The position numbers and the translations under genes are program-made. From contig JAFUWR010000220.1 in NCBI GenBank assembly GCA_017471125.1, positions 1-35,234 on the forward strand: DNA of 35,234 nucleotides, given 5' to 3'. The stretch is from Clostridia bacterium. Its GTDB lineage: Bacteria > Bacillota > Clostridia > Christensenellales > Aristaeellaceae. This document shows, one piece after another, positions 4,549-31,200 of this stretch (its first letter is position 1; each line of letters starts with the position of its first letter). The notes beneath the pieces were generated by a model. It worked only from the letters and a program-made list of their open reading frames with translations. It did no database searches and was not told the origin of the DNA.

Positions 4549-4590
4549 CCAAAACCAGCGCCATAACATTTGTTCTGGCGCTGGTTTTGG
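4549..4590. repeat. 42-nt near-perfect palindrome covering the first codons of pilin P1
   Basis: Left arm is ccaaaaccagcgccataaca (4549..4568). The spacer is tt. Right arm is tgttctggcgctggttttgg (4571..4590). The arms are reverse complements apart from one position (t4564). The right arm is the conserved pilin signal-peptide coding stretch, and the left arm is an inverted copy of it. Confidence 0.85.
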
Positions 4591-6023
4591 TGATGAGCCT
4601 TTTCACCAGCATGAGTGCGTTTGCGACTAGCATCAAGATTACTCCTGCCGAAGGATACAACCCAGACGATAACACTGTTGCTGAAACTTATCATGCGTAT
4701 AAGATTTTCAGCGCTGTAACTCCTTCGGGCTATGAAGGCGTTAACGATGACAATATTGAGACCGCCAAGACCTCTACGGATGTTGGTTTTCAGTATAAGC
4801 TGAGCGGGACCACCGATCCCTGGTATACTGCTGTTAATGCCTCTGGTTATTTTGATTTTAGCACTCAGTCTGATGGAAGCATCATTGCGACTTTGAAAAG
4901 CGCATATAATGCGGATGCATCTACTGCTCAAGCGATCGCTACTGCCTTAAAGCCCTATACCAAGGACGTAGATGCAACGAATGGTATCAATTGGAATTAT
5001 AACCTGACTCTCAATACAGCGCAGACAGTCGATGATGGCTACTATCTGATAGTTTCTTCTCTTGGTGAAAAGCTTGTGCTGGCTACTGCTGATATTGAGA
5101 TAACTGAGAAGAACACCTATCCTGGCGTAGACAAGACTCAGAAGGACCTTGACGACGGTAGTGCCTACATTGATGCTACCCTTGACACTCATGACAACGT
5201 AAGCGTTGCTGTTGGCGATGAGATTTCTTACCAGGTTAAGGTGACCATCCCCGCCACGATCAATGGAAACATTGTTGTGACAGATACCATGTCTGCTGGC
5301 TTGACTTTTGATAAGGATGCAGAAAACGCAATTACCGCAGACAAGGGCACCAAAGATACCGATTGGGCTATCACGTCCAGCAGCGCCCAGGGATGGGTTA
5401 TCACGATCAGCCCCACTACTGCCATGAAGGCTGCTGGCGACATCACTTTCACCTTTAAGGCCAAGGTGAACAGCAGCGCCGTTGTTGCGGATACCACCCG
5501 TAGGAACTCTGTAAAACTGGAGTATAGCAACTTCGAGCAGAACGACTATGTCCCCTTCGAACTCAAGTCTGCTGCCATCTATAAGTATGATGGAAATACG
5601 AGCACTGCTCTTGAAGGCGTTGTGTTCACCCTGAAGGAAGGGGACACTGAATTCCCGGTGTCTTACGATGCGACGAACGGTTACTATTACTATGATGCCG
5701 AAAATGGTTCCGCTGACATCTCAACCGGCGATGACGGTATGATCATTATTCGTGGCTTGGACGGTGACAAGGCTTACACCCTCACTGAGAAGACTCCGAA
5801 GCCTGGCTATAACACCCTGTCCGCTCCTGTCAGTCTGACCTTGCAGGCTATTGACTTTGAATTCACTACCAGCAATGCCGATCAGGTTGAGAACAACAAG
5901 GGCGCTGAGCTGCCCAGCACTGGCGGCATCGGCACCACCATCTTCTACGTGGCTGGCTCCATCATGGTCCTCGCTGCTGCAATCCTGCTGATCACTAAGA
6001 GGCGCATGGGTGCGAACGACTAA
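4587..6023 (+). CDS. LPXTG-anchored pilin-like / isopeptide-type fimbrial subunit P1 (start uncertain)
   Basis: Contains ...SMSAFA|TSIKITP..., YHAYKIF, GYYLIVS, an E-box-like AYTLTEKTPKPGYN, and C-terminal ELPSTGGIGTTIFYVAGSIMVLAAAILLITKRRMGAND. LPSTG lies at 5910..5924. The only starts available sit inside the hydrophobic core: TTG 4587, GTG 4590 and ATG 4593. There is no SD. Confidence 0.8.
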   Translation: MVMSLFTSMSAFATSIKITPAEGYNPDDNTVAETYHAYKIFSAVTPSGYEGVNDDNIETAKTSTDVGFQYKLSGTTDPWYTAVNASGYFDFSTQSDGSIIATLKSAYNADASTAQAIATALKPYTKDVDATNGINWNYNLTLNTAQTVDDGYYLIVSSLGEKLVLATADIEITEKNTYPGVDKTQKDLDDGSAYIDATLDTHDNVSVAVGDEISYQVKVTIPATINGNIVVTDTMSAGLTFDKDAENAITADKGTKDTDWAITSSSAQGWVITISPTTAMKAAGDITFTFKAKVNSSAVVADTTRRNSVKLEYSNFEQNDYVPFELKSAAIYKYDGNTSTALEGVVFTLKEGDTEFPVSYDATNGYYYYDAENGSADISTGDDGMIIIRGLDGDKAYTLTEKTPKPGYNTLSAPVSLTLQAIDFEFTTSNADQVENNKGAELPSTGGIGTTIFYVAGSIMVLAAAILLITKRRMGAND

Positions 6024-6120
6024 TTCCTACGTAGATCCTCGTGGATAGGATGCGTCTGGACAGGCTATAGAGCCTTTAGCAGGCCTCACAGCCTCCACAG
6101 TCGCCTCACATCCACACACT

Positions 6121-6152
6121 GCCCTGGGCCCCTAACCGGGCCTGGGGCTTTT
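6121..6152 (+). terminator. Intrinsic terminator of P1
   Basis: GCCCUGGGCCC-[CUAACC]-GGGCCUGGGGC forms an 11-bp stem with two G-U pairs, followed by UUUU (6149..6152). Confidence 0.75.
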
Positions 6153-6155
6153 CTA

Positions 6156-6763
6156 GTGTGCCGGGCATGGCACGATTCTTGCGGGTGAGAGTCCCGCCAC
6201 GGGTGGCTACCGCCAAGTGTAGCGAACCGCAAGCCGTTGACGGCGACGTCAACGGGGGAGGAAGCGGTGTAGCAAAGCCGACGAGCCTACGAACAGAAAC
6301 TGGATATAAGGCCAAACGGTGGGTAAGGTTGCTAGACAAACCGAAGCCCGAAAGGTAGACGTAAAACCGAGACGGTAAATCCAGAGGTTGTGCGGTGAAA
6401 GAATCGCGTCTTACCCCGGGAGGCCCGGTCAGCGAGGCGAAAGCCGAGTGCGAAAAAAGCGAGTGACCGGGAGTCAGCTGAGGCCATAGTAAGGAAGTGC
6501 ATTCCTGAAGGGCCTAATGTCGTGGCATTGCAGATCACTGTGAGTAAATCAACGATAGCCCGAACACGCAGCAAATGCCAAGGCGAAGGGATCGTAACCC
6601 GGAGCGGCAGGAGAGGCGGACATGCATTTTCGTTGATCTTTGCAAGCAGACTGCGAAGCAACGGACAGCAACGTTCGATACCATGCCACGATGTAGCGCC
6701 GTATACCTGACCGGTATGTACGGTGCAATGGGAGGGAGGGGGGCAAACCCCTCTCTACCCTAT
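6156..6763 (+). mobile_element. Group II intron, class C (IIC) ribozyme RNA with no intron-encoded protein (608 nt)
   Basis: The 5' end is GUGUGCCGGGCAUGG (6156..), followed by GGGUGAGAGUCCC (6183..6195). Many GNRA-capped stems are present. Domain V lies at 6696..6726: GCGCCGUAU/ACC-loop-GGU/AU bulge/GUACGGUGC, with a CGC triad as in IIC introns. Domain VI lies at 6730..6760 with bulged A6757, 7 nt from the 3' end ...CCCUAU (6763). A hairpin loop GCUAGACA holds UAGA (6333..6336), complementary to the last exon bases UCUA (6152..6155), which I read as the EBS1-IBS1 pairing. From memory, the sequence closely resembles the Oceanobacillus iheyensis IIC intron. No ORF longer than 86 aa lies inside and none looks like a reverse transcriptase. 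Confidence 0.85.
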
Positions 6764-6857
6764 TGCCTTTGTGTTGTCTTAACTGACTTTGATGAAAAAT
6801 ACAATGTAAATAATATCCCCAGGGAGTGTGGTTAACCCCCCAGGGATCGTTGTGTTC

Positions 6858-6890
6858 CTACGCCAGCACCATTGTGATCATGGCTGCGGC
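6858..6890 (-). pseudogene. Degenerate fragment of a pilin sorting-signal 3' end
   Basis: The reverse strand gcc gca gcc atg atc aca atg gtg ctg gcg tag reads AAAMITMVLA*. This resembles AAAILLITKRRMGA(N/G)(D/E)* with an internal deletion. It lies immediately 3' of P2. Confidence 0.4.
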
Positions 6891-6906
6891 GTTGGGCAGT
6901 TGCTGC

Positions 6907-7393
6907 TTATTCGCCAGCACCCATGCGGCGCTTGGTGATCAGCAGAATCGCAGCGGCCAGAACCATCAGAGAACCAGCAACGTAGAAGATGGTGGTGCCG
7001 ACGCCGCCGGTGCTGGGCAGGGTTGCACCAGTATAGTTGATCCAGAACCAAATACCATCCGGGAACAGCAGCATAGGTGGTCGTGGTGCCGTCCAGAGTC
7101 GCTACCTCAGTACCGAGGTTGTCCTTGTTGGCGGCAGCCCAAGCACGAGCGGTGGTAATAGCATCAAGAGTAGCCTCAGGAACGGGGCCCGTCAAGCCGC
7201 CCGGATAGCTGGAACCATACTGAACATCAGTCAGCTTACCAGCATTGTCCCCAGTGCCAGGAGTACCGGTGAAAATCTGATAAACTTTATAGGTATGAGT
7301 CACAGCATCATTGTCCCTATTAACAGTGATGTTGTAGGTCACCGGATCATCAGCAAAAGCCGGGATCATGGAAGCGATCATCATCGCCGCCAA
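6907..7393 (-). pseudogene. Pilin P2: internally deleted, frameshifted pilin gene
   Basis: The N-terminal frame reads (L)AAMMIASMIPAFADDPVTYNITV..HTYKVYQIFTG...AAVPGWYLVLD. Near 7038..7043 the reading frame changes, and ...INYTGATLPSTGGVGTTIFYVAGSLMVLAAAILLITKRRMGAGE* (stop 6907..6909) continues in a different frame. The roughly 400-aa core found in P1/P3/P4 is missing. The upstream ATG conserved in P3/P4 is ATA here. Confidence 0.75.
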
Positions 7394-7482
7394 AACCAGC
7401 GCCAGAACAAATAATCTGGCCTCGCTATCACCACACTACATATAGACACTACATCCGCCCCATCAGTATCACGATTTTCCCC

Positions 7483-7511
7483 TTGACAAACCCCTCCAAC
7501 CATGCTATTAT
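7483..7511 (+). promoter_or_regulatory. Consensus-like sigma-A promoter M1 with no obvious downstream gene
   Basis: TTGACA (7483..7488), 17-nt spacer, TATTAT (7506..7511). It shares architecture and flanks with 10456..10484 and 15141..15169. It points away from P2 and antisense into the DUF3800 gene. Confidence 0.5.
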
Positions 7512-7718
7512 GCTTATAGAAGATGCTCTGTCTTTTCCGAAGGCTTGCGTTCCACGCGGGGTATTTATGTAGGAAGGATGGAGCATTTTCTGTACCCTAT
7601 CATCACCCTTATCAGCCCCATCAGTGTGTACATTGTTGCACCGGCGCATCGCCATGAATTATTTGCTTCCTCAGCATAAAGAATGCACGACACGCAATGT
7701 GCCAAACACACGCTCCGT

Positions 7719-8531
7719 TTAGTCCGTTCCTTCTCCTCCCTGACCACGGAAGTCATGGCTACTCTCAAACAACCAATGCTCATACGGGCTCTCCCAGTGA
7801 GGATTCTCAAATCCCCTAAATCCTGTGGACATCTTGATATTGAACGCGGGCAGCATCGTTTGTATTTCCTGATTGATGTACTTGTACAGCTTCTCTTTCG
7901 CAATCGTCCGCTTCCCGCGCGTCCGCGCGCCGTCAGGCTTCACCAGGTGCAGATCATTCATTCGGAACTGCATCGCGCCGAGGATGATGTCGGTGCATTG
8001 CAGGATCACATGATCGTGGGAGCAGACTTCCGCGATATCTTCCCGGCGGATATGAACCCGGCTGCCGGCATAGTCTCGCGTGTTTGGCAGGTTCAACAGA
8101 TAGTCTTTGAAGCGTTCCCGCTTCTCTCGCGTGTCAGGTAGTTCGTCCAGATAGATGCGAACGAAGCACTCTTCCGGCGTGGTCCTCAATCCGAAACTGT
8201 GCTTGAGGAACTGGTAGTAGAGCTTGAAATACTTGTCCCGGTTTTTGTCGATGGGGGCTGAGCTCGTTTCCCGAAACATAATGCGGAAGCGAATCTTCCC
8301 GGCTCGGATAAAATCGAAGAATAGATGGATGAGTTCCTCATACTTCTCCAAATAGTTCGGTGTGACCTTGATCCACTTTACTTCACGGAGGAGGTTGAGT
8401 TCCGTTTTTTTATTATTTAGAGCGGTTGTAATCTCCTCCAGATATTGGAAAGGGAGAATGCAGCCTCCGAAGAAATCGCTGTATAGCGTGCCCTTGTCCA
8501 GGGATTCGTCGCAGTAGATAACGTATTCCAC
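7719..8531 (-). CDS. DUF3800-family protein (about 270 aa)
   Basis: I take the N-terminus as (V->M)EYVIYCDESLDKGTLYSDFFGG, matching my recollection of the DUF3800 opening (hydrophobic-Y-x-DES). GTG at 8531 has an AGGAG SD 7 nt upstream. The track ORF begins further upstream at TTG 8591, which I consider less likely. Confidence 0.65.
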   Translation of the reverse strand: MEYVIYCDESLDKGTLYSDFFGGCILPFQYLEEITTALNNKKTELNLLREVKWIKVTPNYLEKYEELIHLFFDFIRAGKIRFRIMFRETSSAPIDKNRDKYFKLYYQFLKHSFGLRTTPEECFVRIYLDELPDTREKRERFKDYLLNLPNTRDYAGSRVHIRREDIAEVCSHDHVILQCTDIILGAMQFRMNDLHLVKPDGARTRGKRTIAKEKLYKYINQEIQTMLPAFNIKMSTGFRGFENPHWESPYEHWLFESSHDFRGQGGEGTD

Positions 8532-8763: not shown

Positions 8764-10404
8764 TTAGTCGTTGGCACCCATGCGACGCTTGGTGATCAGC
8801 AGGATGGCAGCAGCCAGAACCATGATGGAACCAGCCACATAGAAGATCGTGGTGCCGATGCCGCCGGTGGAGGGCAGGGTAGCGCCAGACTTATTCTCGA
8901 TCTGGCCAAAGATCTCGCCAGAGCCGAGTTCATCGGTAGTTCCGTCGATCTTAGTGTCAACAGTCTCAGTACCACTGCCATCGGCCTTATCACGAGTAAA
9001 GGTAAACTCACCGCCGCTGGGAGAGGCAGCATAACCAGTCGGGCCATTCAAGGCAGTGATGCTGTATACACCAGTAGTGCCATCAGCTGCAATGGTACGG
9101 GTGATGGAGAAGCTCAGAGGATCCATCGTGTTATATCCGTCAGGGGTAGTGGTCTCAACGAGGAGGTAGTCGCCAGCATCCAAGCCATCGAACTCAAAGT
9201 TAGTAACGCCAGTGATTTCCTGATCAACGGTGTAATAATCCGTATAATCAGTCAGAGTGCAAGCATCACCATACCGGTCATTAGTATCGTCAGCACCAGA
9301 AGCAAGCTTCTTATACAGGGTGAAACCAGCACCGGTCTTCGCTTCATAACCAGATTTGTCAGCCTTGGCTACGATCTTGTCTACATCCATCTTGTAGGTG
9401 AACACGACCGTAGTATCGTCGGGAGTGTCGCCAGTCTCTTCACCGCCCTGATCGTCATTGGGGTTGTTAGAGTATTCGACATGGCTGGTATTGGGGTTGC
9501 CAGGGTTGCCATAGACAACACCAGTACTATTCAGGGTAGAAGTGTAGTACACGCTGATAACAGAACCAGCTGCGACTTCGCCAATTTCCTTCAAATTGGC
9601 AAAGACGACTTCGAAGGCGCAATCATCATCAAGGCCAGTAGTTACAACCTCGAACCCTTCGGTGATCTCTGTATCACCAACATAAACCTTCACTGTGCTA
9701 GCATTGAAGGTCAGACCCTCACACTGCTCATCATGAAAGGTCAGATGATAAATCTTATAATTATCATACTGGTCGGTGATGGTAGCAGTCAGTTTAAAGG
9801 GAACCTCATCGCCGATGTCGTAGTCAGCATAATCACCGTAAGTCAGCCCCTTCAGATCGCTCAAGTCAATGTCAGTCGAGCTATCATTGTTTTCAGCAAC
9901 ATCCTTAGTAGAGGTGGTGGTATTTGCCTTACGAGTGATAGTGACATCACCCACAACCTTCACGATGTACAGGGAATACTCGTCACCCTCACCAGGCGTG
10001 AAACCAGAGGCATCCTTGATAAGATAATAGCCAGCCGGGACACTCGTCAAAGAAGCTCCAGCAGCAACGCCAGCCGCATAAGTACTACCATCAGCATAGG
10101 CATTCACGGCAACAGCAGTCTCTTGCGCGTCATTATCCATAGCGGCTAGGGTATCAAGCACATTTTGAGCAACAACGCCAGTGTTACTACTGCCAGAACC
10201 CCACTGTACATTAGACAAAACACCATCATACAGATCACCAGTAAAAATCTGATAGACATCATATGTGTGGGTAAAACCGGTCGAATCCGTAGGCATAGTC
10301 AGAGTAAAAGTCTGAGCATCAGCCATGGCCGGGATCATGGAAGCGATCATCATCGTCGCCAATACCAGCGCCAGAACAAAAAATCTGGCCTCGCCATCAA
10401 TCAA
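8764..10404 (-). CDS. LPXTG-anchored pilin-like protein P3 (546 aa from the TTG start)
   Basis: Reads (TTG)MIDGEARFFVLALVLATMMIASMIPAMA|DAQ..., then HTYDVYQIFTGD, GYYLIKD, an E-box DYLLVETTTPDGYN, and C-terminal TLPSTGGIGTTIFYVAGSIMVLAAAILLITKRRMGAND. No SD precedes the TTG. Confidence 0.88.
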   Translation of the reverse strand: MIDGEARFFVLALVLATMMIASMIPAMADAQTFTLTMPTDSTGFTHTYDVYQIFTGDLYDGVLSNVQWGSGSSNTGVVAQNVLDTLAAMDNDAQETAVAVNAYADGSTYAAGVAAGASLTSVPAGYYLIKDASGFTPGEGDEYSLYIVKVVGDVTITRKANTTTSTKDVAENNDSSTDIDLSDLKGLTYGDYADYDIGDEVPFKLTATITDQYDNYKIYHLTFHDEQCEGLTFNASTVKVYVGDTEITEGFEVVTTGLDDDCAFEVVFANLKEIGEVAAGSVISVYYTSTLNSTGVVYGNPGNPNTSHVEYSNNPNDDQGGEETGDTPDDTTVVFTYKMDVDKIVAKADKSGYEAKTGAGFTLYKKLASGADDTNDRYGDACTLTDYTDYYTVDQEITGVTNFEFDGLDAGDYLLVETTTPDGYNTMDPLSFSITRTIAADGTTGVYSITALNGPTGYAASPSGGEFTFTRDKADGSGTETVDTKIDGTTDELGSGEIFGQIENKSGATLPSTGGIGTTIFYVAGSIMVLAAAILLITKRRMGAND

Positions 10405-11555: not shown

Positions 11556-13313
11556 GTGGCGCTGGTGCTGGCAGTCATGATGCTGCTGGTCAGCGTAAGC
11601 GCATTAGCTGCTACAATTGAAAATAAGACCGACCATTCTTATGATGCCTATCAGATTTTTGCAGGAACTCATGTTGCTGGTGAAACCACAGGCAAACTGG
11701 GTGTTACTGGTTGGGGTAGCGGTATTAATGGAGATGCGTTTCTTACCGCATTGAAATCAAACTCTGCTTTTAATAAGACTACCGGTACAGGCGAGGATGC
11801 TGTAACTGAGAATGTTTTCAAAGACGCTAAGACTGCCGCTGATGTCGCTTCTATCCTTGGTGATAATGCCACTGATAAGAGTGATTTTGCAAAGGCTTTT
11901 GCGCTTGAAGCTGAGAAGCATCTCAAGACAGAAAAAACTGCCATCGCAGCTGGTGCTACAACTGCTGAACTCCTGGGCTATTATCTGCTTGTGGACACTC
12001 AGACTCTTGAAGATGGAGATGCCAAGAACCTTTCTCTGTTGGAGGTAACCGGCAAAGAGAAGTTCACTATCGAGAAGAAGTATGATAAGCCCTCTCTCGA
12101 TAAGGACATCATTGAGGATGATGCAAATGTCGAGGCAGCCGACAAGAATATCGGTGATACTATTACTTACGAGCTTCGTGGTACTTTGCCTTCCAACCTT
12201 GGAGACTTCACCAAGTATTACTTTGAGTTCTCCGATACTCTGTCTAAGGGCCAAGCGTATCAGGGCGATATAAAGGTCTACTTGAACGAAGTTAAGGCAA
12301 AAAATGACATCACTGGTAAGTTCACCATCAAGCATTCCACTGATAAGGGTGCTACTGACAAAACTGACGGTGCCTCTGCTACTGAATTCTCGATCAAAAA
12401 TGAGGACATTTTGGCTGCTTCCACTGGTATTGCCGGCGTGAAGGGCAGTGATGTTATCATTGTTCGCTATACCGCGATTCTGACAAAGGACGCTACCGTT
12501 GGGTCTACGGGCAACGAGAACAAGGCCAAGTTGACTTACTCCAGCAATCCGAACTATAATGGTGATGGCGAAAAGAAGGATACCCCCGAGGACAAGACCC
12601 TTGTTTTCACCTATGAACTGGATACCACCAAGGTTGACGGCGCTGAAGTTACCGTTCCCGATGGCGCGACCTATTATAATGCAGACGATACTGCTGCTGC
12701 TGACGCCTCTGAAGCCGCATATGCAACTGCCGACGGCGTGACGTATACCAAGGATGCTGCTGGTAAATGGCACAAGGCTATCGAAGGCGCTGAGTTCAAG
12801 CTGTATCGTATGAATGGAACCGACAAAGAATATGTCGTGCTTGAAGCCAGCTCTACCAAGGTTAAGAGTTGGACGAAGACCATTGGGGAAGCAACTGTTT
12901 TGACTTCTGCTGCAAACACGGGTCTGTTTGAAGTGTCTGGCTTGGATGCCGGTACTTACTACCTGGTTGAGACCAAGGCTCCCACTGGTTACAACCTGCT
13001 TAATGATCCTGTGAAGGTTGTAATTGCTGCGACTATCACTGGCTCAACCACTGGTACTGTGGGCGCGGCTGATGATCATGATAAGGTTGCTCCCGCTTTG
13101 ACCGCTCTCACTATCGCGGTAAACGATGGCACTGCCCAGAATGGTAAGTTAGCTACTGGTGAAGTCAAGGATACCATCGCCAATAATGGCGGTAATGTCC
13201 TCCCCTCTACCGGCGGCATCGGCACGACGATCTTCTACGTGGCTGGCTCCATCCTGGTCCTGGCTGCTGCGATCCTGCTGATCACCAAGCGTCGCATGGG
13301 TGCCAACGACTGA
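11556..13313 (+). CDS. LPXTG-anchored pilin-like protein P4 (585 aa from GTG 11556; true start unclear)
   Basis: Reads (GTG)ALVLAVMMLLVSVSALA|ATIENK..., then HSYDAYQIFAG, GYYLLVD, KPSLDKD, an E-box TYYLVETKAPTGYN, and C-terminal VLPSTGGIGTTIFYVAGSILVLAAAILLITKRRMGAND. In frame upstream the sequence is stop-DLQRCGNGRVRFFL with no start codon and no SD. Confidence 0.88.
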   Translation: MALVLAVMMLLVSVSALAATIENKTDHSYDAYQIFAGTHVAGETTGKLGVTGWGSGINGDAFLTALKSNSAFNKTTGTGEDAVTENVFKDAKTAADVASILGDNATDKSDFAKAFALEAEKHLKTEKTAIAAGATTAELLGYYLLVDTQTLEDGDAKNLSLLEVTGKEKFTIEKKYDKPSLDKDIIEDDANVEAADKNIGDTITYELRGTLPSNLGDFTKYYFEFSDTLSKGQAYQGDIKVYLNEVKAKNDITGKFTIKHSTDKGATDKTDGASATEFSIKNEDILAASTGIAGVKGSDVIIVRYTAILTKDATVGSTGNENKAKLTYSSNPNYNGDGEKKDTPEDKTLVFTYELDTTKVDGAEVTVPDGATYYNADDTAAADASEAAYATADGVTYTKDAAGKWHKAIEGAEFKLYRMNGTDKEYVVLEASSTKVKSWTKTIGEATVLTSAANTGLFEVSGLDAGTYYLVETKAPTGYNLLNDPVKVVIAATITGSTTGTVGAADDHDKVAPALTALTIAVNDGTAQNGKLATGEVKDTIANNGGNVLPSTGGIGTTIFYVAGSILVLAAAILLITKRRMGAND

Positions 13314-13330
13314 TCGACAGACCCATTTTT

Positions 13331-14948: not shown

Positions 14949-15009
14949 CTGCCCCCTCCACCGGCTCGCCCTGCTGATCACCAAGCGTCGCATGGGCGCC
15001 AACGACTGA
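14949..15009 (+). pseudogene. Relic of a pilin sorting-signal end (P5 remnant)
   Basis: ctgccccctccaccggc is LPSTG coding with one extra c. It is joined to ctgctgatcaccaagcgtcgcatgggcgccaacgactga (LLITKRRMGAND*). The hydrophobic segment has been deleted. The last 39 nt differ from the P4 end (13274..13313) at one base. Confidence 0.75.
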
Positions 15010-15092
15010 TACTCGTTGCAACCGCCCCATTCGGAACGTGCGTGACGGCGACCGAGGCCGAATAGCCCCATGATCGACGTCCCGCGCACCCT

Positions 15093-19169: not shown

Positions 19170-19237
19170 TGTAAACCCCCGGGGGTAATCGTCCGTGTAA
19201 CCCAGGGGGAGGTATAATGAAAGAGTTATAGAATGGC
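19170..19237 (+). promoter_or_regulatory. Promoter/leader block of the giant adhesin gene (homolog of 1262..1311)
   Basis: tGTAAACCCCCGGGGGTAATCGTCCG, then a partial duplicate tgtaacccaggggg, then TATAAT (19213..19218), then TTATAGAATGG. A 10-bp perfect palindrome CCCCCGGGGG lies at 19176..19185. A second palindrome TATGCGCATA sits in the leader near 19243. Confidence 0.5.
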
Positions 19238-19292
19238 TTTACGTATGCGCATATTTCAGCACACGAAACGCTCAAAAAACGGGGTGGAAGAT

Positions 19293-22200
19293 ATGGCAAA
19301 CAGCATCGACAAAATGGTACGGCAGGCAAAGAGCAGGCGCGTGCGCAAGCGCGTCCTGGCGCTGTTGGCGGTGGTGACGGTCTTTTTGACCTCCACCGGC
19401 CTGCGCTATGAGGTCATCGCGATGGACCGCGAGCCCAACTGCGGCCTCCTGGAGCACATGCACACCGAGGCGTGTCTGGACGACCTCGGCGCGCTCATCT
19501 GCGGCCTGGATGCCCACGTCCACACGGACGCCTGCTACCAGGACGCGCCCTACGCGCCCCTCGAGGCCGAGATAGAGGCGCCCCTCGAGGCCATCGAAGC
19601 CCCGGTGGAGGAGCTTGAGGCGATGGAGCTCGAGGCCGTGGACGAGTACGTACCGGAGGACGCGCTTCCCATCGAGGCGGAGACCCCCGCGCCCGAGTTC
19701 GTCTACGACATGAACGGCGCGGACCGCGCCCTGCTCAGCGACGTGCTGGCCGCGGCGGGCCTGGAGGTCGGCCTCGTGGACGAGGTCGGCGAGAGCGTGC
19801 TCAGCGACGACCAGGTCCCCTCCATCGCCGTGGAGCGCCGCGACGGGGACTACGCGATCACCGCCCTGCGCGACTTCATCGACGACGACCGGGTGGAGCT
19901 GGCCATCTTCGCCGCGGACGGCGGCGTGTACACCGTGCTGCTGGCCAACGGCGTCGTGCCCGTCGCGGCCACGGCTACGCCCGAGCCGACGGCAGCCCCC
20001 ACCGACACGCCCGAGCCGGAGTACACCGTCGCGCCCGAGCCGATGGACGACGACGAACCCGAGTACACCGTCGCGCCCGAGCCGATGGACGCCGGCGAGC
20101 CCGAGTACACCGTCGCGCCCGAGGTGGTCGAGCCGGCGGCGGAGGTCGACGCCTTTGAGCTGGGCGAGGCGACCCCGTCCGGCAAGCCTACCTATAATAT
20201 TGAAATCAATCTCTACGGCGAGACCGGCCCGTTCAGCCTGACCGCCTGGCTCGCGGACGCCATCGACCCCGAGGCCGACGACGCGCCCGCCTCCGAGTGG
20301 ACCATCGCCTATAACGATACCCTGTTTGAAGTCCTGCCCGACGGGGAGGACTGGCAGGTCATGCCCATCGGCGAATTCGACGAGACCGAGATCGACGTGG
20401 ACACCGGCGCGGCCCTGTACGCCGTCGCGCTGACCAACGCCGCCCCCGGCATGGACGCCCTCGAGACCGGCGTGGCCGTCATCCGCCCCGTGGACGGCGA
20501 CCTGCCCGCCGAGGCCGAGGGCCACGCCGACGTGCTGGACGCCGATGCCGCCGACGCTGCCTGGGCCCAGATCGAGAATTGGAAGGGCAGCCAGCTCCGC
20601 TTCGAGCGCACCTTCGCCGCCGCCCGCACCGCCGCCGCCGCGCCCAACGAGACCCGCGTGCAGGCCTTCGACATCGGCCTGGACAACGTGGACCCCGAGA
20701 CCTACGCCGAGGGTTTCGCCGTCACCGTGACCCTGCCCGAGGCCGTCTGCGGCCGCGACTTCCGCCTCTACCACATCCACGGCGACGGCGACATCGCCGA
20801 GATCGAGGACTTCGACCGCGTCGGCCACCCCGTCGATGACGCGAACGAGGTCGTCACCGCCTTCACCTTCACCACCGACCGCTTCAGCGAATTCGTGCTG
20901 GTCTACACCGTGGACTTCACCTATAACGGCTATACCTATCACATGCCCGGCGGCAGCCGCATGCTGCTGTCGAGCCTGCTGGACATCCTGCAAACGGGCA
21001 TCGCCATCGACGACGTGGCGGAGGTCGCGTTCTCCGATCCCGCGCTGGTCGACGTGCTCGCGTATGCCGACGCCCACGACTGGATGCTCAGGAGCCTCCA
21101 GCCCTTCGACACCCAGGAGACGCTGACCCTGACCCTGCAGAGCGGCGAGCAGACGATCATCTACGTGACGGATGAGGCGCAAGAGGCTTCAGACGGTACG
21201 ATGGACATCACCCACCTGCTGACCAAGGTCGGGGTCTACGAGAAGCAGGACGGCACATGGGTCAGCGCCGGTGATTCGGACAGCGCCGACCCGGTGAAAC
21301 TGCGCGGCGACAAGGAATACTATCTTGAATTCTCACTGGCCGAGGTGTTGAAGGCAAATGGCCAGTTCTCCGACGACGCTACGCCCATGAGGCTGTATCT
21401 GCCTGACGGGGTGCAGATCGTCGATGCGGCCCTGAATGGCAAAGAAGACACACTGACCATCAACCTGGGCGAGGATGGAGAATTCACCGGAAGCAAGGTC
21501 AAGTATGTCGCCAAGAGCGATAGCGATCCGCGGGGCTATATCGAGATCACTTGGAACGCGAACGATTCCACACAGTCGGATAAATTCGACGTGCTGACCG
21601 CCTCCGCCTTCGCGGAGATCACGCTGCGCTACAAGGTCAATATCACCACGGACACGGGCTCGATCAAGTTCAATGAATCCACGACCCTCAACGTCACCCC
21701 GGACAACAGCTTCGACGTGCACGCGACCAAGAAGGGCGAATTCGAGAAGGTCTGGAATGAAACGACCAATAAGTTTGACGCCCGCGTCAACTATACCGTC
21801 ACTGTGACCACCGACGGCAACGCTTCGCCTATACCGGTGAATGAGAATAAGACCCCGATCGAATATGCCAACAGCATCAAGGTGTCTGACCGCATCAACG
21901 GCGACCTGCTGGTGTATGACCCGAACAGCCTCGTCGTCACCCGCATGCCCGAGGATGAAAATACGCAGGGCGAAACCAAGGTATTGACCCTCAACGAAGA
22001 CTTTAGGATTATTACCGAAAATCCTGAGAGCACAAACGGCTTCGATCTGGAGATCATCAGCGACATTCAAGACAATGAGAAGGTCGTCATCACCTATTCC
22101 GCCGATGTGGATAAAACAAAGCTGGGCAACAACATGGGCACGGCGGAATCCACCGGCAACAGCGTGGCGGTCGAGGGCTCGGATTCCAGCGACACGGATT

Positions 22201-25200
22201 CCTTCGACATGGAAGGAAAGCTCGAGTATGTCGGTGTCGATAAGCTCGACCCCGGAACGGAGACCAAAAAGACGGTAGACGGCAAGGAATACCTGTGTGT
22301 GCCGTGGACCATCAAATACAATGATGAGCCCATCGTGTCCGTAAAGGGCGCGACGCTCACCGATACCCTCGCCTCGGACGCCATAAACGCCTCGATGTAT
22401 GATACCTCTGACGGCGCATTCGTTGTGAAGGTCTACGACGTAAATGGCGGCGATACGCCGATCAAAGTGCTCTATCCCGAATGGGGAGACGGCGCAGGCC
22501 AGGTCCACAAGACAGACTACGACTATACCCTCGGCTCGAACGACAACGTCAAGGTCGCCGGCTCGAAGTGGGAGTGGACGATCCCGGACGAAGCGGATTA
22601 TGGCGGCACCGGCCCCTATTCCTATGTGATCACCTACAACACCCTCATCAACGAGAATTTGTACGGGAAATTCGACTTCAAGAATACGGTGGAGGAGAGC
22701 AAGACCCACAATGCCGACGCGGCGACCTATACCTATCAGTCAAATGAGCAGCATACCCATCTGACGGTGGAAAAGAAGGCCCTGGAGGTGACCCAAAAGT
22801 ACATCAAGTGGCAGGTCAAGATCCCGCGCCAGGAGGTCCCGCTCAGAAACGCTTACCTGACCGATATCCATCCCAATGAGAGCGGCTATTACGAGTGGAT
22901 CGTGACGGACGCGAACGAAGCGAGATCGCTGGGCATCACAGACACCAATAAGCTCATCGACACGACCGGCCTGATCACCGCGGAAGAAGGTCATCCAGGG
23001 CATGAGGAGATGTCGACCTCCTATACGAGCAAATCCCGCACGATGTTCCACTTCTACTATTATACGGGAGATGTTGACGCAAGTGGCCAGCCCGTCGTGG
23101 TGGATTGCCTGCAGGCCAGGGGCGTGGGCAACGGCAAGGAGAATATCGTCATCACCTATTATACGAAGGTCGACGACAATTGGCTGAGAAGGACCATGAG
23201 CGAGGGCCTGAACCAGGACCACGTGAACAAGGTGCAGCTCCAGGCCAACAACCAGTATGCTGAGAGCTCCGACAAGGCGGTGCCCAGGACCCCCGATTTC
23301 AAGAAGATCGCGGAGAAGCAGCCCGTGGGCACCGCGGTCGTGGACGGCGTCCCCATGGACAAGCTGAAATTCACGCTGATCCTCAAGGGCATCGACGACA
23401 AGAAGGGCGACGGGAAGCCGGTAAACGACGTCCTCTATTCGGCAAACAACTGGTTTGACGAGAGCGACAATCTGGTCATCGAGGACGTGTTCGACGCCAG
23501 CCTCAAGATGCTCGGATTGGACGATGGCAGCGATAAGCTGATACTATATCAGGACATCCCCGCTGCCAAGGAGGGCGAGACGCAGAAGACCATCGAAGCG
23601 ACGTGGAAGCAAGAGGACATCACGGTGGAGGGAAAGGCCAAAAAGAAGGTCACCATCACCATCCCGAAGGAAAAATTCGGCGGAACGTACGGCCTGGTGT
23701 ACAGCCTGCCCTATTACATGACCTACGCTTCGCTGCAAGCTGCGCAAAGCCTGTCGCAAGAAAAGATGACAGGTGAAGGTAAGACCCGGTATACGACCTT
23801 CGGCAATTCGGCGAAGGTCAAGGGTATCGAAACGCTGTCGGATGGTCCCATCAACGTGACGGTGGACCTCAAGCCCATCGACAAGACCGCCGTGAAGAAG
23901 GACAACGGCAAATGGAAGTATTCCATCGTCATCAACCCCGTGGGCGCGACGCTGAACGGCGGCAACGACTATCGCCTGACCGACAGCTACGAAAACCTGG
24001 CGGTGGATTACCTGACCATGAAGATCTACGAGGTGGATTATTCTAAGAACGAAGAAAACCAAAAAGTAGACGTCACCAAAGACATCCTCTGGTCCTACCA
24101 CGGCAACGAGGGCATCTTCTGGCTGCACGACAGCAAACCTTACATCATCGAATACGAGACGTGGCCGGTGGGCAAGCTGGGCACCAGCTTTGTCATGACC
24201 AACACCGCCGAGATGCTGGGCTTCGACGATACCGTCGAGCAGGAGGTGGAGCTGTCCTCCGAGCACAGCGGCACCATCCGCAGCTACAAGCTCAAGCTCC
24301 TCAAGCACGCCGACGACGCCATGGGCCGCGGCATCGAGAACGTCGTGTTCCAGCTTTTCATGCTCAACGACGCGGGCGAGCGCGTACCGGTCACGTATGA
24401 CGCAGACTATGATAAGAACGGCGCCGGACTGAGGTGGACGAGAACCCCGCGTGAAGAAGATAACTTGACGCAGACCGAGTTTGCCTCCCCTGACAGCCAC
24501 AACATCGGCGACAAATATTACATCACGACCGACGAGAACGGCGAAGCCACGATCTTCCTCAACATGAAGCGGGACGGCGTGGCGCTGGAGCCCGGCCGGC
24601 AGTACTACCTCAAGGAGGTCTGGTGGCCCGAGGGCTATGACATCGAGGACATCTACTGGAGCTTCGTCATCAGCGATATGGACGACTTCACCAGCTATGT
24701 CTACCGCAACGGCGGCGTGCTGAAGGTCTCCAACGATACCGCCGGCGGCGCGCTGATCCTGCGCAAGGAATTTGGCGGCGTGGATGTGCCCTATTCCCTC
24801 AAGAGCGGCATACAGTTCCGGATCGACGGCTATAAGCCTTCTGATGTGGCTGGTGAGCCGGATCAGGTGGTCTTTACGCGCTATGCCTCCTATTCCGAAT
24901 TCAAGAAGTATACGCCTACTGCGGCTGAAGGTGGCACGCCCTACTATCGCTATCGCCTGCCCTGGAACGATTCGGAATTGAAGGCGCTGAGCGCTCAGGG
25001 CAAGACTGTCACCTACTTCAAGGTGACCGAGCTGTCGGATACCGCCGATATGCCCACCTTCTCTCTGGCGACCACCATCACGGGTGATACGGGCGTTGAG
25101 GTTATCTACGAGAGCGAGAAGCCCGTAGCGGCAAAGGTCACGATGCCGGATGATGAGAATAAGGATAGCAACATCACTACCCAGTTCACGAATACCTATA

Positions 25201-28200
25201 TCCCGAACCCGGAGAACATGCAACTGACCGTCTCCAAGGATTGGGGCGAGCTGGCGAAGAAAAAGACGGATAAGGCGGTCAAGTTCGCGCTGTACAAGAA
25301 TGGGGAGAGGTTTACTCTGACCGCTGCCAATGGCACAAATATTGACAACGGCTGCATCCTGCTGAACGACGCGAATGAATGTAAGGCCACCGTGACCGGC
25401 CTGCCCCGCTTCGACGAAAATAACAAGGAGATCGTCTGGACCATCGCGGAGGTCTGGGCGCAGTATACGAACAGCGACGACACCGAGACCGTGGACGGCG
25501 AGGCGATCGTGGCGGAGCACTTCACCACCACCGCCGTGAACGTCTCCACCAAGGGCGGTGAACCTGTCAAGGACAGCAACAATAAGGAGATCCAGGCCGA
25601 CGCGACCCGCAAGGGCACGGCCTGGCTGGTCAGTCTGCCCGTGGACCGGCACGGTGCGGTGCAGGACACCAACCGCACCATGCGCTTCACCAATGAGCTG
25701 AACGAGCTGGTGGAGGTCGAGGTAAAGAAGGTATGGGCGAATAACGACACGCATACGGACTTCGATTCCATCACCTTCGACCTCTACCGCACCACCGATC
25801 CGCTGCCGGAGAACAAGAGCAAGCTCAGCGAGTTGGTGGGCCAGAAGAACACCCAGCTCGTGTATGCCGGCGTGGAGCTGAACGCTGGAAATGACTGGCA
25901 CTATGAGAACAAGCACCTGAAGGGCTATGACGAGGACCTGGCCACCCAGTACAACTACTTCGCCATCGAGCGTCCCGTGGCGGGCTACGAGACCGGCTAT
26001 GCCATCGCGCTCGGAGACGGCCAGCAGACCCTCACCATCACCAACACGAAGGTGAATGAAACCGGTACGTTGAAGGTCAAGAAGGAGGTCTTTGGCCTGA
26101 CCGCAGAGGAGTTGACCGACCGGCAATTCTCCTTCACCATCACCAACAACGGGAAGTATCTGAATACGGACGGCAGTTTGACAGCAAATAATCCCGGGCT
26201 TACCCTTAGCGCTACGGGCGAGGGTGCTGTGATAACCTTTGAAAACGTCGCCCCGGGCATCTATACCATCACCGAGAATGACGCCAAGGTAGAACCGTAC
26301 ACCTGGAAGGCCCACATCGTGGAGGTTGCCGGGGGCAGCACCAGCGAAGTCACCACCGAGGGCAGCACCGCGCAGATCACCGTCGTCAAGGAAGCTACGG
26401 ACACCGTCACCATCAACAACACCTACCAGAAGGGCGAGAAGGACTTCACCTTCGGCAAGCTGTGGATCGGCCCCGGCGACAACCGGGAGACCCTGGTGTG
26501 GCCCACCGGCCAGTCGATAGAGGTCACGGTGCAGCGGCGAAAGACCGATGGTACAGTAGATGGCGATTTCAACCTCGTCTACACCATCTCCCGCGGCGAA
26601 TCGGCGGATTCGGAGGTCACAACGAAGTTTGAGAGGGTCAAGTCTGGCACTCTCCCGTCCGACATGAGCCACGCGCCGGATCTGGAGATACTGGCCCCGG
26701 GCAACAACTACCAGTACCAGTTCAAGCTGTCCGGCCTGCCCAAGGAATATGAAACGGGTAAGGAATGGGAGTACTTCGTAACTGAGACCAACTGGGATAA
26801 GGATGAGTTTGACAAGCATTACGGCGTCGTGAACGGCAAGCTGGCATCCTTCAACGATGATAGCTTTTTCGACGCGCACCAATGGGAGGACCCCAAGAAC
26901 CCGGGTCGCACCATCACCGGCAGCATCGTCAACCAGCGCAAGAGCATCAAGGGCTCCGTGCCGGTGCAGAAGGTGATCCCGGGCCGCACCATGATCCAGC
27001 CCGGCGAGTTCTGGTTCAAGCTGACCTACAACACCTATCATATCGACGAGACGACGAAGGAAAGGAAAGCCACTACCCATGTGGCCTATGCCTGCACGGA
27101 CGGCACCTACACCGGCAAGGTGCTCTTTGAGGATGTCGAGCTCGATATGAGCGCCATGGAGCTGAAGATCGTCAAGGGCCGCGTGGCGCTGGTGGGCCAG
27201 GTGGAGTATACCATCGAGGAGGTCCAGCCGGGCACAGAAATCACGGTCAATGACAAAACGATCACCGTCGAGAAGGCCCTGGGCGTGACGTATTTCACCA
27301 AGAAGATCACCGTGACCGACAAGATGGTCGTGGACTGGGAGACCGGCGAGGCCACCCACGGCCTGACCTGCAACTGGCAGGGCGGCTCGGAGCTGGGCGT
27401 GGACGTGGTGACCGTCAAGAACACCTATAAGCCTGAGACGCGCCAGCTCGAGGTGAAAAAGCTCTGGGATGACAAGGACAACCAGGACGGCAAGCGCGGC
27501 AAGGTGACCTTCAAGGTCGATTGCTACACCAAGGTCAATGACAGGGAGTTCAAACGCTCCACCCAGCCCTTTGAGCTCGACCTGTCTCAAGGCGACGGCA
27601 CCGCCACCATCGACGTGCCCGCCTTCATCGAGAGCACCCCGGTGCAGCGCTATGTGGTGCGCGAGACCAACGTGCCCGAGGGCTATACGGACACCGTGTC
27701 CGCCTATACGATCAATATCGTCAAAGTCCAAAAGACCTCGACGGATGCGGCCGACACGGTTGACGTGGAGTATGGTTCTGACGGCCGTTCCACCACCTAT
27801 AAAATGGCGAACGATCTGGACAAGACGGAGGTCCTTAAGGCGTACAAGGAGGACGACATCAACAGCGCCACCGCCGTAAATGGGCACGATCCGGAGTTGA
27901 CCTCGGTCAGCGTCACCAAGGAATGGAAGGATAATAATGATACTTCCAAGCGCGGCGCTGTCACCATGCAGCTTACCGCGACTTACCAGGACGATAGTGG
28001 GGTTACCCAAAAGCTTGCGTTTGCGAACGATTTGGTTTGGACGGACGGCATCGCCAAGGCTTGGGCGGATTACTTCGTTTACGCCGGGGTGACCGGTTAT
28101 CAAACCTCGCTTATGCCCTGCAAATTGAACGGCAGCGTACTGTTCCATACCTGGGAGGACCTTCCCAAGTACGCTCCCGGCTGCGTGGGCAAGGAGGTCA

Positions 28201-31200
28201 CTTATAGCGTCGTGGAGAAGGCGGACACCATCCCCACAGGCTATCATGTGACCAAGAATGAGTCCCAAAAGACCACCGCCGAGGATGGCAGCGTCAGCAC
28301 CGCCGCCACCATCGAAAACACCTATGAGACCGTCGATCTGACGGCCAAGAAGGTGTGGGACGACGACGGGGACCGCGACGGTCTGCGCAAAGACGTTACA
28401 GAGGTCAAATTCACCCTGTCTGCGGAAGCTCCCAAGGGCAATGATATTACCACTGGTTTAGTCGATGACACGAAGGTCGCGTTGTCCAACGCCGATCTCG
28501 TCAAAACGGTGGACAACACCCATTCGACGAACGTGACCAACAATGGGTTTGTCAAGCAGGAGTGGACGAGCGGGAAAGCAGTCGATTGGGCGAACCTGCC
28601 GAAATACTGGCATGGCGAGGAGATCACCTATATCGTGACCGAAACTGTCCCGGAAAATCTGGCAGGCTATGCGATGGGCCAGCCCAGCACTTCCGGCGCG
28701 ACACGCGCCATCACCAACACCCATACGCCCTACGTCACCGAGCTGCAATTGAAAAAGGAATGGAAGGATAACGACAACCAGGACGACAAGCGCCCTGACC
28801 CTGTCGATTTTGTCAAGAATCATGTTGTCCTGACCGCGCAGCTTGCGGATGGCAATATAGAACTGAAAATCGGTCAGAAAAAGCAGGGCACTGCTTCCAC
28901 GTATCTGCTGGAAAATCCTCCCGCCGGGTTTGCGAACGTCGAGGTGGTCATTGAAGGCAGCAACGAGAAGGAGAAGGTGACACAGTATTACACGATCACC
29001 TGGAAGAACCTGCCGAAGAATCAGGATCATGGGACGCTGATCGACTATACCCTCAAAGAAGCTCCGGTGGTTAAGGATTACACCAGTAATGCTGGGACAG
29101 ATGGCGCGATCACCCTTACCAGTAGCACCGATGAGGCGACCCAGAAGCGGACCCTCACTGGCAGCGTGATGAATGAGTATACGCCCGATGTGATGACGCT
29201 GAAGGTCAAGAAGGTCTGGAACCACGGCAAGAGCACGGCGACGACCAAGCCAAATGAGGCGACTGTCACGCTGGTCGCGAAGACGGCAAACGGCACAAAG
29301 CTGAATTATACCTCCGAGGCTTGGACGAGCAAGCATTATTACATCGTAGGTACTCAAACGCTGACCGGAGATGGCGCAGAGTATTCCTGGACAGGCCTGC
29401 CGAAGTATGTGCCCGGCAGCGTCGGCGATGTGGTCTATTACAGCGTGGAGGAGGACTTGTATTCTCTCGACGCCGGATATATGGTGCAGTACAGCGCGGA
29501 TTCCATCAAGGCCACAGATGTTACGACGGCAGTTTCACCTGCAACCACCCCCGAGGCTGAGATCACCGTCACCAACAGCTATGTGGACACCAACATCACC
29601 GCGACAAAGACCTGGAAGGACGATGCCAACCGCGATGATCAGCGTAAGCCTGCGACATTGAAGCTTCAAAAGAAGTTCAAGGGCGCAGCCGACAGCACGT
29701 ATGCGGACGTGAATACCCGTTCCTTCCCCGTGACCAATGAATCTATTGCGACGTGGACGGGCCTGCCGGTATACGAGAACGGCAAGGAGCTGGTCTACCG
29801 CGTCGTCGAGGATATGACCAGCGTACCGGGATATGAGAATGCCAACGACAAAGTGGAAGCTGCCTACGCGACGGACGAGGATAAGCCGTCTGTCGGCAAG
29901 ACCGGCAACGCCACGTTGTCCATGACCAACACGTATATCCCCAAGACGGTGGACGCACCCTTCAACAAGAAGTGGGAGATGCACGGCTATCCGGAGCATC
30001 CTTCGGATGGCACCTTCACGGACGCGCTGCACCTGTGGGCGTCTTATACCGAGGGTTCAAACACCTATAACTACGATGTAGGCGCGACGACAGGCGAAAC
30101 GAACGCGCTGCCTGATGATCTCAAGACCGCTTGGGATAAAGCGGTTGCCGATTGGAAGGCGAACATCCGCTTTGCCGCCAAGAACGCCGATATCGCGGTC
30201 GCTACCAATCTCAAGGAATCCACTGACAACCTGGGCGATGAGTTCAAGGTGGTCGTGATCGACCTGCCCCAATACATGCCCGGGAAGGTGGGCAAGCAGG
30301 TCACCTATACCCTGACGGAGGATGCGATCACAGACTATACGACGGCTTATCCCGCCGACGCGACTTCGCTTGCTATAAATGAGACGCTGACCAACGAACA
30401 CATCACCAAGGACCTGACCGTCAGCAAATCCCTGGTGAGCGACCTGGCGGCGGATGCCGACAAGACGTTCACATTCACGGTCACAGCCAGCACAGCGCTC
30501 CGCACCGATGTGGAATATACCACCATCACCGGCGCGACGACCGCCATCGCAGCGATCACTGCGGAGCAGATCAAAACGATCGTTGAAGGTGGTAGCGTGG
30601 TTGGCTTCACCAAGGGAACGGTGAACTTCAACAATAGCAAGCAGACGACTGTTTCTCTAAAGAAGGATCAGGCTGTTCGCATCGTGGGCTTGCCCACCAA
30701 CGTCACCTACACCGTGAAGGAGACGGTGCCGGATAATTTCAACACCCCGAAGTATGCGGCAGACGGCGAAACGGCAGTCAGTGGCAACGAATATGCCTGC
30801 GCTTTCACCAGTACCGGCAGCGATCATGCCGTCGCGTTCACCAACACCCGCAAGACGAACAACCTGACCGTGAGCAAGACCGTCGACAGCGCGCTGAGCG
30901 GGACGGACGGCAACACCACAGACGACGACCAGCATCATGCGTTCCACTTCAAGGTGACGCTGTCCGGCCTGGAAACCACAGTCGAAAAATATACTTACAG
31001 CGGTGTGGAATTCACAAAGGTTGATGACGATTACGTGGGCTACGTGACAATAACGCATGACAATAGGGTACAAATCGAAGGTCTGCCCTACGAGGCCACC
31101 TATACGGTGGAAGAGGTGAGCGACTGGACGGGCGCGTCTGACGAGGAAAAGGCTGCCGAGGCAACCCTCCTTGCCAAGTTTGACGTGGACCCGACCAACG

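Follow-up and report, generated by a model that had tools for sequence, protein, structure and literature searches.

Sequence evidence for an ORF-less class C group II intron inserted after a pilin terminator in a Clostridia bacterium contig

We examined a 35,234-bp stretch of DNA from a Clostridia bacterium (contig JAFUWR010000220.1, hereafter the window, always meaning this stretch at its whole length), in which the gene for an LPXTG pilin, P1, is followed by an intrinsic terminator and then by an element of 608 nt at 6156..6763 (+). Sequence comparison supports the assignment of this element as a class C (IIC) group II intron without an open reading frame (ORF). It very probably descends from a IIC retroelement that inserted after the P1 terminator and then lost the gene for its intron-encoded protein (IEP) by deletion, and it would now persist as a single, fixed and non-autonomous copy with a structurally intact ribozyme. 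The coordinates that an initial annotation of this DNA had given for the terminator, the intron ends, domains V and VI, exon-binding site 1 (EBS1) and its intron-binding site partner (IBS1) were all borne out on re-reading the sequence, and are collected with the other features in Table 1.

The intron begins with GTGTGCCGGGCATGG at 6156 (in a longer reading, GUGUGCCGGGCAUGG...GGGUGAGAGUCCC) and ends in ...CUACCCUAU, with CCCTAT at its 3' end. A full Rfam scan of the window matched RF02001 (group-II-D1D4-3; 119.8 bits, E 2.9e-24) and RF01998 (42.9 bits) to the element, both above their gathering scores and well outside chance expectation. The RF00029 model for domains V and VI was matched at 6694-6763 in a sensitive scan, where its 36.5 bits (E 4.5e-5) fell slightly short of the gathering score of 40; this shortfall was uninformative, because the model reached its gathering score at none of 13 other loci with the IIC 5' motif. 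Covariance models thus match domains I-III as well as domains V/VI, in agreement with the initial reading of the element as a group II intron. Class C introns of GTDB genomes, three of them from Oceanobacillus genomes, can be aligned with the element in its first 45 nt, in the architecture of domain I and in the EBS1 hairpin. The assignment to class C, which had been proposed from a CGC triad, a short EBS1-IBS1 pairing and an insertion adjacent to a terminator, held on all three points: the triad is present, the EBS1-IBS1 pairing is of 4 nt, and the insertion after the intrinsic terminator is in the sense orientation. Of the class C features that could be assessed, the only one missing was a class C reverse transcriptase (RT)/maturase, of the type without an endonuclease domain, encoded in domain IV; the element is class C by its RNA and has no IEP, and is therefore an ORF-less derivative and not a complete retroelement. 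All ribozyme domains are present, domain IV (178 nt) is too short to encode an IEP, and a total of 608 nt is a typical size for an ORF-less intron (PMC12350094).

The minimum free energy fold of the element formed six domains and was more stable than all 20 shuffled sequences (z = -2.95). Domain V was composed of a 9-bp lower helix, a 3-bp upper helix, a 5-nt loop and a 2-nt bulge (A6716, U6717); all 12 pairs were canonical, and three of them showed a compensatory change in homologs. Its CGC triad aligned with the AGC positions of RF00029, and a YGC triad was found in all 10 distinct domain V sequences of relatives. In domain VI the bulged A6757 is the seventh nucleotide counting from the intron 3' end. 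Among ten homologs, double (compensatory) changes were seen at 7 of the 24 pairs of domains V and VI, which upholds the pairings drawn for both domains. The helices, bulge and triad first described for domain V were thus confirmed both in the sequence and in the RF00029 alignment, and the bulged A of domain VI both in the sequence and in the fold.

We examined the insertion site and the sequences by which such an intron would recognize its exons. The stem of the P1 terminator has 11 pairs, 9 of them G-C, and a loop of 6, and is followed by TTTT (6149-6152) and CTA (6153-6155), so that the arrangement initially reported (11-bp stem, UUUU and CUA directly before 6156) was found intact and the intron begins 7 nt past the end of the stem. 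This spacing is in line with related loci: of the 54 GTDB loci with the same 5' motif, most have a hairpin whose end lies a few bases upstream of the intron. The pairing put forward between the domain I loop UAGA and the exon UCUA was seen at 4/4 positions, and it covaries across 17 distinct class C introns: when the tetranucleotide at hairpin loop positions 3-6 was compared with the last four exon bases, 62 of 68 positions were paired, versus 29.9 +/- 4.6 with shuffled partners, and the observed value was reached in 0 of 10,000 shuffles. The EBS1 sequence UAGA itself was seen in no sampled relative of the window element. EBS2 was judged absent from the short D1d and from the alignment to introns from Oceanobacillus genomes, rather than from a dedicated test. 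The first base of the 3' exon was U in 13/13 clade members and, being invariant, gave no covariation signal for EBS3-IBS3. The exons on both sides of the insertion would join as ...GGGGCTTTTCTA followed directly by TGCCTTTGTG..., which gives the sequence of the intron-free site.

Two further observations were made on related loci. The EBS1 loops of the full-length relatives L068, L070 and L071 mismatch their present 5' exons. At L018, L020, L027, L034, L036, L050 and L052 the 40-nt IIC 5' motif is present and the sequence 150-230 nt downstream is unlike domain I; these may be 5' intron fragments or rearranged copies.

Neither an RT ORF nor a remnant of one was found in the intron or anywhere on the 35,234-bp contig. 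In a tblastn search of the window with the IEP of a relative the best E was 9, the six frames of the window held no RT motif of the group II type, and the ORFs within the intron (the longest sense ORFs being 62-86 aa, plus antisense ORFs) had no Pfam match above threshold, the only hit being sub-threshold at E=0.07. Hallmark sequences of the intron occur once in the window. The ORF, Pfam, motif and tblastn checks therefore agree with the initial annotation that domain IV holds no RT/maturase ORF. That annotation had also called this absence unusual; the absence is real, but it places the element in a rare category that is already documented (PMC4424553, PMC3245105, PMC8919778).

The nearest full-length introns, L062 and L066-L078, came from ruminant-gut ENA assemblies of projects that also contain the species of the window. 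These introns are 1910 nt long and encode a 435-aa IEP with RVT_1 and GIIM domains; human-gut and uncultured Clostridia loci (L032, L013, L064 and L065) have introns of 1894 nt with a 430-aa IEP. The 435-aa IEP matched TIGR04416 at 400.8 bits, and its best PDB relatives were 7UIM (E 6.9e-109) and the GsI-IIC RT 6AR1 (E 4.2e-92). The annotation of 7UIM goes no further than group II intron RT/maturase; we take it to be the Eubacterium rectale IIC RT (MarathonRT). Judged by its sequence matches, the IEP of L062 and L066-L078 is of the class C type. At E <= 1e-50 the IEP family contained 7977 proteins, mostly on contigs of ~2 kb from ruminant-gut assemblies, and one identical IEP, P0058, was found on 21 contigs at different insertion sites, a pattern that marks a multi-copy element in active spread. 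The introns of IEP groups P0094, P0092 and P0103 were considered as closer RNA relatives and rejected, being further off at ~81%; L092 was likewise set aside, as its 98% match spans only the invariant domain V segment.

Alignment of the window element to L062 and L066-L078 gave ~84% identity over intron positions 1-507 and ~88% over positions 522-608, and the homology breaks at 507/522 in every full-length relative. In L062 the first of these positions (507) aligns 2-3 nt ahead of the GTG start codon at 497, and the second (522) aligns with the stop codon (1802-1804). Since the break falls at the start and stop codons in all relatives, the window element is a derivative from which almost exactly the coding sequence is missing. 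Domain IV retains its closing stem and ~145 nt that were the 5'-untranslated region (5'-UTR) of the lost IEP gene, with a long hairpin (~6546-6640); the closing stem covaries (GUGGCA/UGCCAC versus GUAACA/UGUUAC versus AAUAUA/UAUAUU), and the Shine-Dalgarno sequence GAAGGAG of the relatives is changed to GACUGCG in the window (6650-6656). A separate deletion was seen at L063: this is the L013 locus, in the same genomic place, after the clean loss of 965 bp from within the RT/maturase ORF (L013 5609-6573), which leaves an intron of 929 nt. This independent event shows that deletions of this sort do happen in this IIC clade.

We compared the substitutions in the window element with its predicted pairings. 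Relative to L078, 39 substitutions in paired columns broke 9 pairs, where 28.9 +/- 2.8 were expected at random (5000 runs of a random-substitution simulation, with a minimum of 16 broken pairs). At sites where three full-length groups agree, the window element has 42 unique substitutions, by which 6 pairs were fully compensated, 3 were kept by single changes and 6 were scored as broken. Four of the six "broken" pairs belong to the domain IV hairpin, where a register shift in the window yields a perfect 8-bp helix (AUCAACGA/UCGUUGAU). These comparisons show that the RNA structure has been under selection along the window lineage, whether only before the loss of the ORF or also after it. The trimming of the ORF to the limits of the conserved RNA structure hints that the flanks, including the domain IV hairpin, may have stayed under selection for some time after the loss. 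A change in the domain V bulge, C to U, was considered as proof of inactivation and rejected: the full-length intron L039 has the same AU bulge, and because of this U6717 is a caveat and not evidence of inactivation. Divergence was 19.6% in the domain IV 5'-UTR versus 12.3% in domain I; this comparison was dropped as a sign of relaxed constraint, the relative-rate result being inconsistent between lineages.

Four other metagenome contigs of the species (L001-L004), with flanks that differ by 0.07-0.39% from those of the window, have the element at this site with 100% identity. A scan of GTDB genomes with a 5'-end pattern gave the 54 loci mentioned above, none from the species of the window and none ORF-less; a scan of metagenome contigs with a subclade pattern gave 4 loci, three of them full-length and one with a partial ORF deletion. 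Both patterns required GGGTGAGAGTCCC, so relatives with a GCAAG or GAAAG loop were missed by the scans and were recovered by protein search. Two scans of viral contigs gave 0 and 2 loci, the 2 being from full-length-type elements, and the plasmid and phage collections gave distant partial matches only. No empty site was found in the collections searched. The 3' ends of the paralogous pilin genes within the window were tried as an empty site and rejected, as only their coding ends are shared, not the 3' UTR.

The history that best accounts for these results would begin with the reverse splicing of a full-length gut/rumen class C intron, at the hairpin of the P1 terminator, into single-stranded DNA, the target being chosen by the pairing of EBS1 (UAGA) with IBS1 (UCUA), by an IBS3 contact of one base and by stem-loop recognition. 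Reverse splicing at terminator hairpins with such contacts is established behaviour of IIC introns (PMC8643678, PMC1702495). The IEP gene would later have been deleted, with the six domains, the domain IV closing stem and the structured 5'-UTR hairpin left in place. In its present position the ribozyme would be transcribed only by read-through of the P1 terminator. Because the ribozyme part is structurally intact, self-excision from such read-through transcripts is probably still possible; by analogy with the Oceanobacillus iheyensis intron O.i.I1 (PMC4748821), we infer that a ribozyme still competent today would act mainly by hydrolysing the 5' splice site, unless helped to branch by a maturase. 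Mobility would need a related class C RT/maturase supplied in trans. Trans mobilisation of ORF-less introns was demonstrated in cyanobacteria (PMC2882425), and for ORF-less introns of bacteria the general assumption is that a protein is supplied in trans (PMC4424553, PMC3245105). The DIVa region of group IIA introns, the equivalent of the retained part of domain IV, is critical for maturase binding (PMC2882425).

Several observations weigh against this history. The element is known from one site only and is invariant across the window and the four other contigs, no second ORF-less copy appeared in the exact-pattern scans of GTDB genomes and metagenome contigs, and the RT gene is absent from the 35-kb contig, which was the scope of that search. 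The nearest full-length relative is only ~85% identical, and no recent parent or helper was identified. The host does not select for the splicing of an intron that follows a terminator. Two window-unique mismatches remain, A.C at 6172/6407 and A.G at 6492/6507, together with the window-unique change of the domain V bulge from AC to AU (U6717), and the structure-preserving substitutions may all be older than the loss of the ORF. Some of these points would also suit a dead relic, that is, a full-length insertion that lost its ORF in place and is now inert DNA prior to decay: the copy is single and fixed, it lies downstream of a terminator, it has the altered bulge and the two helix-base mismatches, its Shine-Dalgarno sequence is lost, its domain IV 5'-UTR has diverged more than domain I, and L063 is a precedent for deletion of the ORF in place. 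The six domains, the CGC triad, the branch-site A, both termini and the EBS1-IBS1 pairing are nevertheless all intact; only 2 pairs are clearly broken outside the re-registering domain IV hairpin versus 6 compensated on the window branch; the AU bulge recurs in L039; and the ORF was cut to its exact limits with the adjoining RNA structure untouched, which suggests that the flanks were protected for a while. We regard the inert state as possible but doubtful.

It is unlikely, and a little more so, that the element is an active non-autonomous retroelement, spliced and mobilised by a related full-length IIC RT/maturase in the same cell, and that it arrived at the terminator already as an ORF-less RNA. 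In its favour are the perfect 4/4 pairing of an EBS1 that no sampled relative shares, the compensated helices on the window's own branch, and the survival of just the ribozyme and the domain IV 5'-UTR hairpin, as selection for maturase binding predicts. Related multi-copy IIC RTs also abound in the same ruminant-gut data sets (P0058 on 21 contigs), an ORF-less intron in bacteria is nearly always accompanied by a related intron that has an ORF (PMC4424553, PMC3245105), and the ORF-less TeI3 of Thermosynechococcus elongatus is mobilised in trans (PMC2882425). Such activity is countered by the lack of a second copy in any of the collections searched, by the one known site being fixed and invariant in five contigs, by the lack of a helper RT tied to the source genome within the 35-kb contig searched, and by an RNA identity of only ~85% to the nearest RT-encoding relative. 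A domesticated ribozyme, in which cleavage at 6155/6156 would trim read-through of a phase-variable pilin locus or insulate convergent pilin genes, is highly improbable. The element does lie between convergent pilin genes, within a segment flanked by inverted repeats and candidate inversion sites, and it is invariant among strains with flanks that differ by 0.1-0.4%; however, zero differences in 608 nt are not significant at that flank divergence, a post-terminator location is the default for every class C intron, and nothing links the element to pilin expression. We know of no precedent for a host-domesticated ribozyme of this sort. The boldest form of these alternatives, a living, MITE-like intron (MITE, miniature inverted-repeat transposable element) stripped to a ribozyme plus a maturase-binding domain IV hairpin and parasitising rumen IIC RT/maturases, or else a host-kept transcript-trimming ribozyme in an invertible pilin locus, is quite improbable, and both the trans-mobilised "mini-IIC" reading and the host-retained ribozyme are without positive support. 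Insertion of a complete IIC retroelement followed by deletion of its IEP gene is thus the history we prefer.

Table 1. Positions of the intron, its domains and exon contacts, and of neighbouring features in the window.
Feature	Position	Strand	Evidence or detail
ORF-less class C group II intron (supported assignment)	6156..6763	+	GUGUG to CCCUAU; Rfam matches; termini the same as in 12 full-length relatives
Intrinsic terminator of pilin P1	6121..6152	+	11-bp stem 6121-6148 plus TTTT; terminator scan
IBS1 (UCUA), final 4 nt of the 5' exon	6152..6155	+	4/4 pairing with EBS1
EBS1 (UAGA), in terminal loop GCUAGACA of domain I hairpin 6326-6343	6333..6336	+	same loop positions as in 16 other class C introns
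IBS3 candidate (U), first nt of the 3' exon	6764	+	3' exon starts with T in 13/13 clade members
Domain I, including EBS1 hairpin 6326-6343	6161..6419	+	fold; RF02001 at 6237-6409; 71/72 consensus pairs canonical
Domain II	6420-6475	+	fold; RF01998 at 6451-6513; compensatory changes versus relatives
Domain III (separated from domain II by J2/3)	6481-6515	+	fold; RF01998 at 6451-6513; compensatory changes
Domain IV without ORF	6517..6694	+	closing stem 6521-6530 / 6684-6693; alignment to L062, L066-L078
Deletion junction	6663..6676	+	14 unalignable nt (GGACAGCAACGTTC) replacing ~1308 nt (IEP coding sequence) of full-length relatives
Domain V	6696..6726	+	triad C6697-G6698-C6699; RF00029 alignment
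Domain VI	6730..6760	+	bulged branch-site A6757 over a 3-bp basal helix; fold, covariation
LPXTG pilin P1 (SpaA-type), upstream host gene	4593..6023	+	ORF listing
Second terminator-like hairpin	6815-6847	-	13 pairs; after pilin relic
Sorting-signal repeats	5910-6024, 6907-7031 (-), 8764-8888 (-), 13200-13314, 14970-15010		
DUF3800-VIII RNA motif (RF03075)	7522-7587	+	71.5 bits

The region around the intron has features of its own. The counterpart of P1 called in the contigs with the identical element (L001-L004) has the domains GramPos_pilinBB, SpaA and Gram_pos_anchor. At 4549-4590, exactly at the 5' end of P1, lies a near-perfect palindrome, CCAAAACCAGCGCCATAACA-TT-TGTTCTGGCGCTGGTTTTGG, and P1 has no start codon upstream of it; related copies at 7390-7420 and 10359-10389 are at the 5' ends of two minus-strand pilin genes. 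From their sequence and placement, the palindrome copies look like site-specific inversion sites that would bring alternative pilin cassettes to one expression site, and the intron falls inside the candidate invertible segment 4560-7420. The C-terminal sorting-signal sequence of the pilins (LPSTGG, a transmembrane segment and KRRMGA) is repeated four to five times in the window with 83-90% identity, one copy belonging to a pilin relic with a frameshift (6878-7393, minus strand) that lies immediately downstream of the intron. The relic is followed by the second, minus-strand hairpin of Table 1, and the intron therefore has a pilin terminator on either side, the two pilin genes being convergent. 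Further along, a strong sigma-70-like promoter (TTGACA-17-TATTAT, with extended TG, 7483-7511) precedes the DUF3800-VIII motif, and this RNA is convergent with a DUF3800 gene (7719-8531, minus strand). The last 15.7 kb of the contig are filled by a single ORF of 5222 aa (19233-34901, plus strand).

Of the group II introns, those of class C are the best known in structure and have supplied widely used RTs. The present element is a clean example of ORF loss among them: its parent family can be identified, the ends of the deletion coincide with the start and stop codons, and the domain IV hairpin that was kept marks what the RNA may still need. Should a helper RT be found in the same genome, the pair would form a natural system for class C trans-mobilisation and maturase recognition. 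The finding is at the level of annotation, and the understanding of group II introns is unchanged by it. In the literature searched we found no published account of this element, or of ORF-less class C introns as such.

Bacterial group II introns without an ORF form a category that is rare and recognised, with a catalogue in the Zimmerly database and a systematic extraction by Miura et al. (PMC8919778), and six were recently reported in phages (PMC12350094); the window element is a further case of this category. Its ribozyme resembles O.i.I1, B.h.I1 (Bacillus halodurans) and GsI-IIC in being compact, in its GUGUGCC(C/G)GGCAUGG...GGGUGAGAGUCCC 5' end, in the CGC triad and in having the EBS1 tetranucleotide at the same loop positions; with O.i.I1 it also shares the 3-bp basal helix of domain VI and a U at position -3 (PMC4748821). 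As in class C introns generally, the insertion is a few nt after a terminator hairpin and has a short IBS1 only (PMC1702495, PMC8643678). It differs from these three introns in having no RT/maturase ORF in domain IV, and its domain I at intron positions ~45-115 has the subclade layout common to the ruminant- and human-gut relatives, unlike the Oceanobacillus type. With this gut/rumen IIC family (L062, L066-L078, L032/L013) it shares 82-85% RNA identity, the termini, the domain V loop UGACC, the domain IV stem, the 5'-UTR hairpin and the 3' exon U; those introns, however, encode a 430-435-aa RT/maturase and are multi-copy, whereas the window element has no coding sequence, one known site and an EBS1 (UAGA) that is unique among them.

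Among introns that lack an ORF, TeI3 is comparable in having lost its ORF by deletion within domain IV, with DIVa retained and the IEP needed in trans, and good EBS/IBS pairing at its sites was taken as a sign of retrohoming (PMC2882425). TeI3, however, is of type IIB/CL, has remnants of both ORF ends and 17 proliferated copies, and its trans mobilisation was demonstrated, whereas the window element is of class IIC, with one copy, an almost exact removal of the coding sequence and no known helper. C.te.I1 of Clostridium tetani is a stand-alone ORF-less intron for which likewise no IEP gene is known in the available sequence (PMC4424553, PMC4024640); it differs in its coding context, its alternative splicing and in not being of class C, while the window element is intergenic and follows a terminator. 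A further parallel is L063, which belongs to the same IIC clade and, at a fixed place in the genome, has likewise undergone an internal deletion of its IEP gene. In L063 the two ORF ends are still present within 929 nt and the deletion looks recent, whereas in the window element the whole coding sequence is gone and the RNA has diverged by ~15% from any full-length relative.

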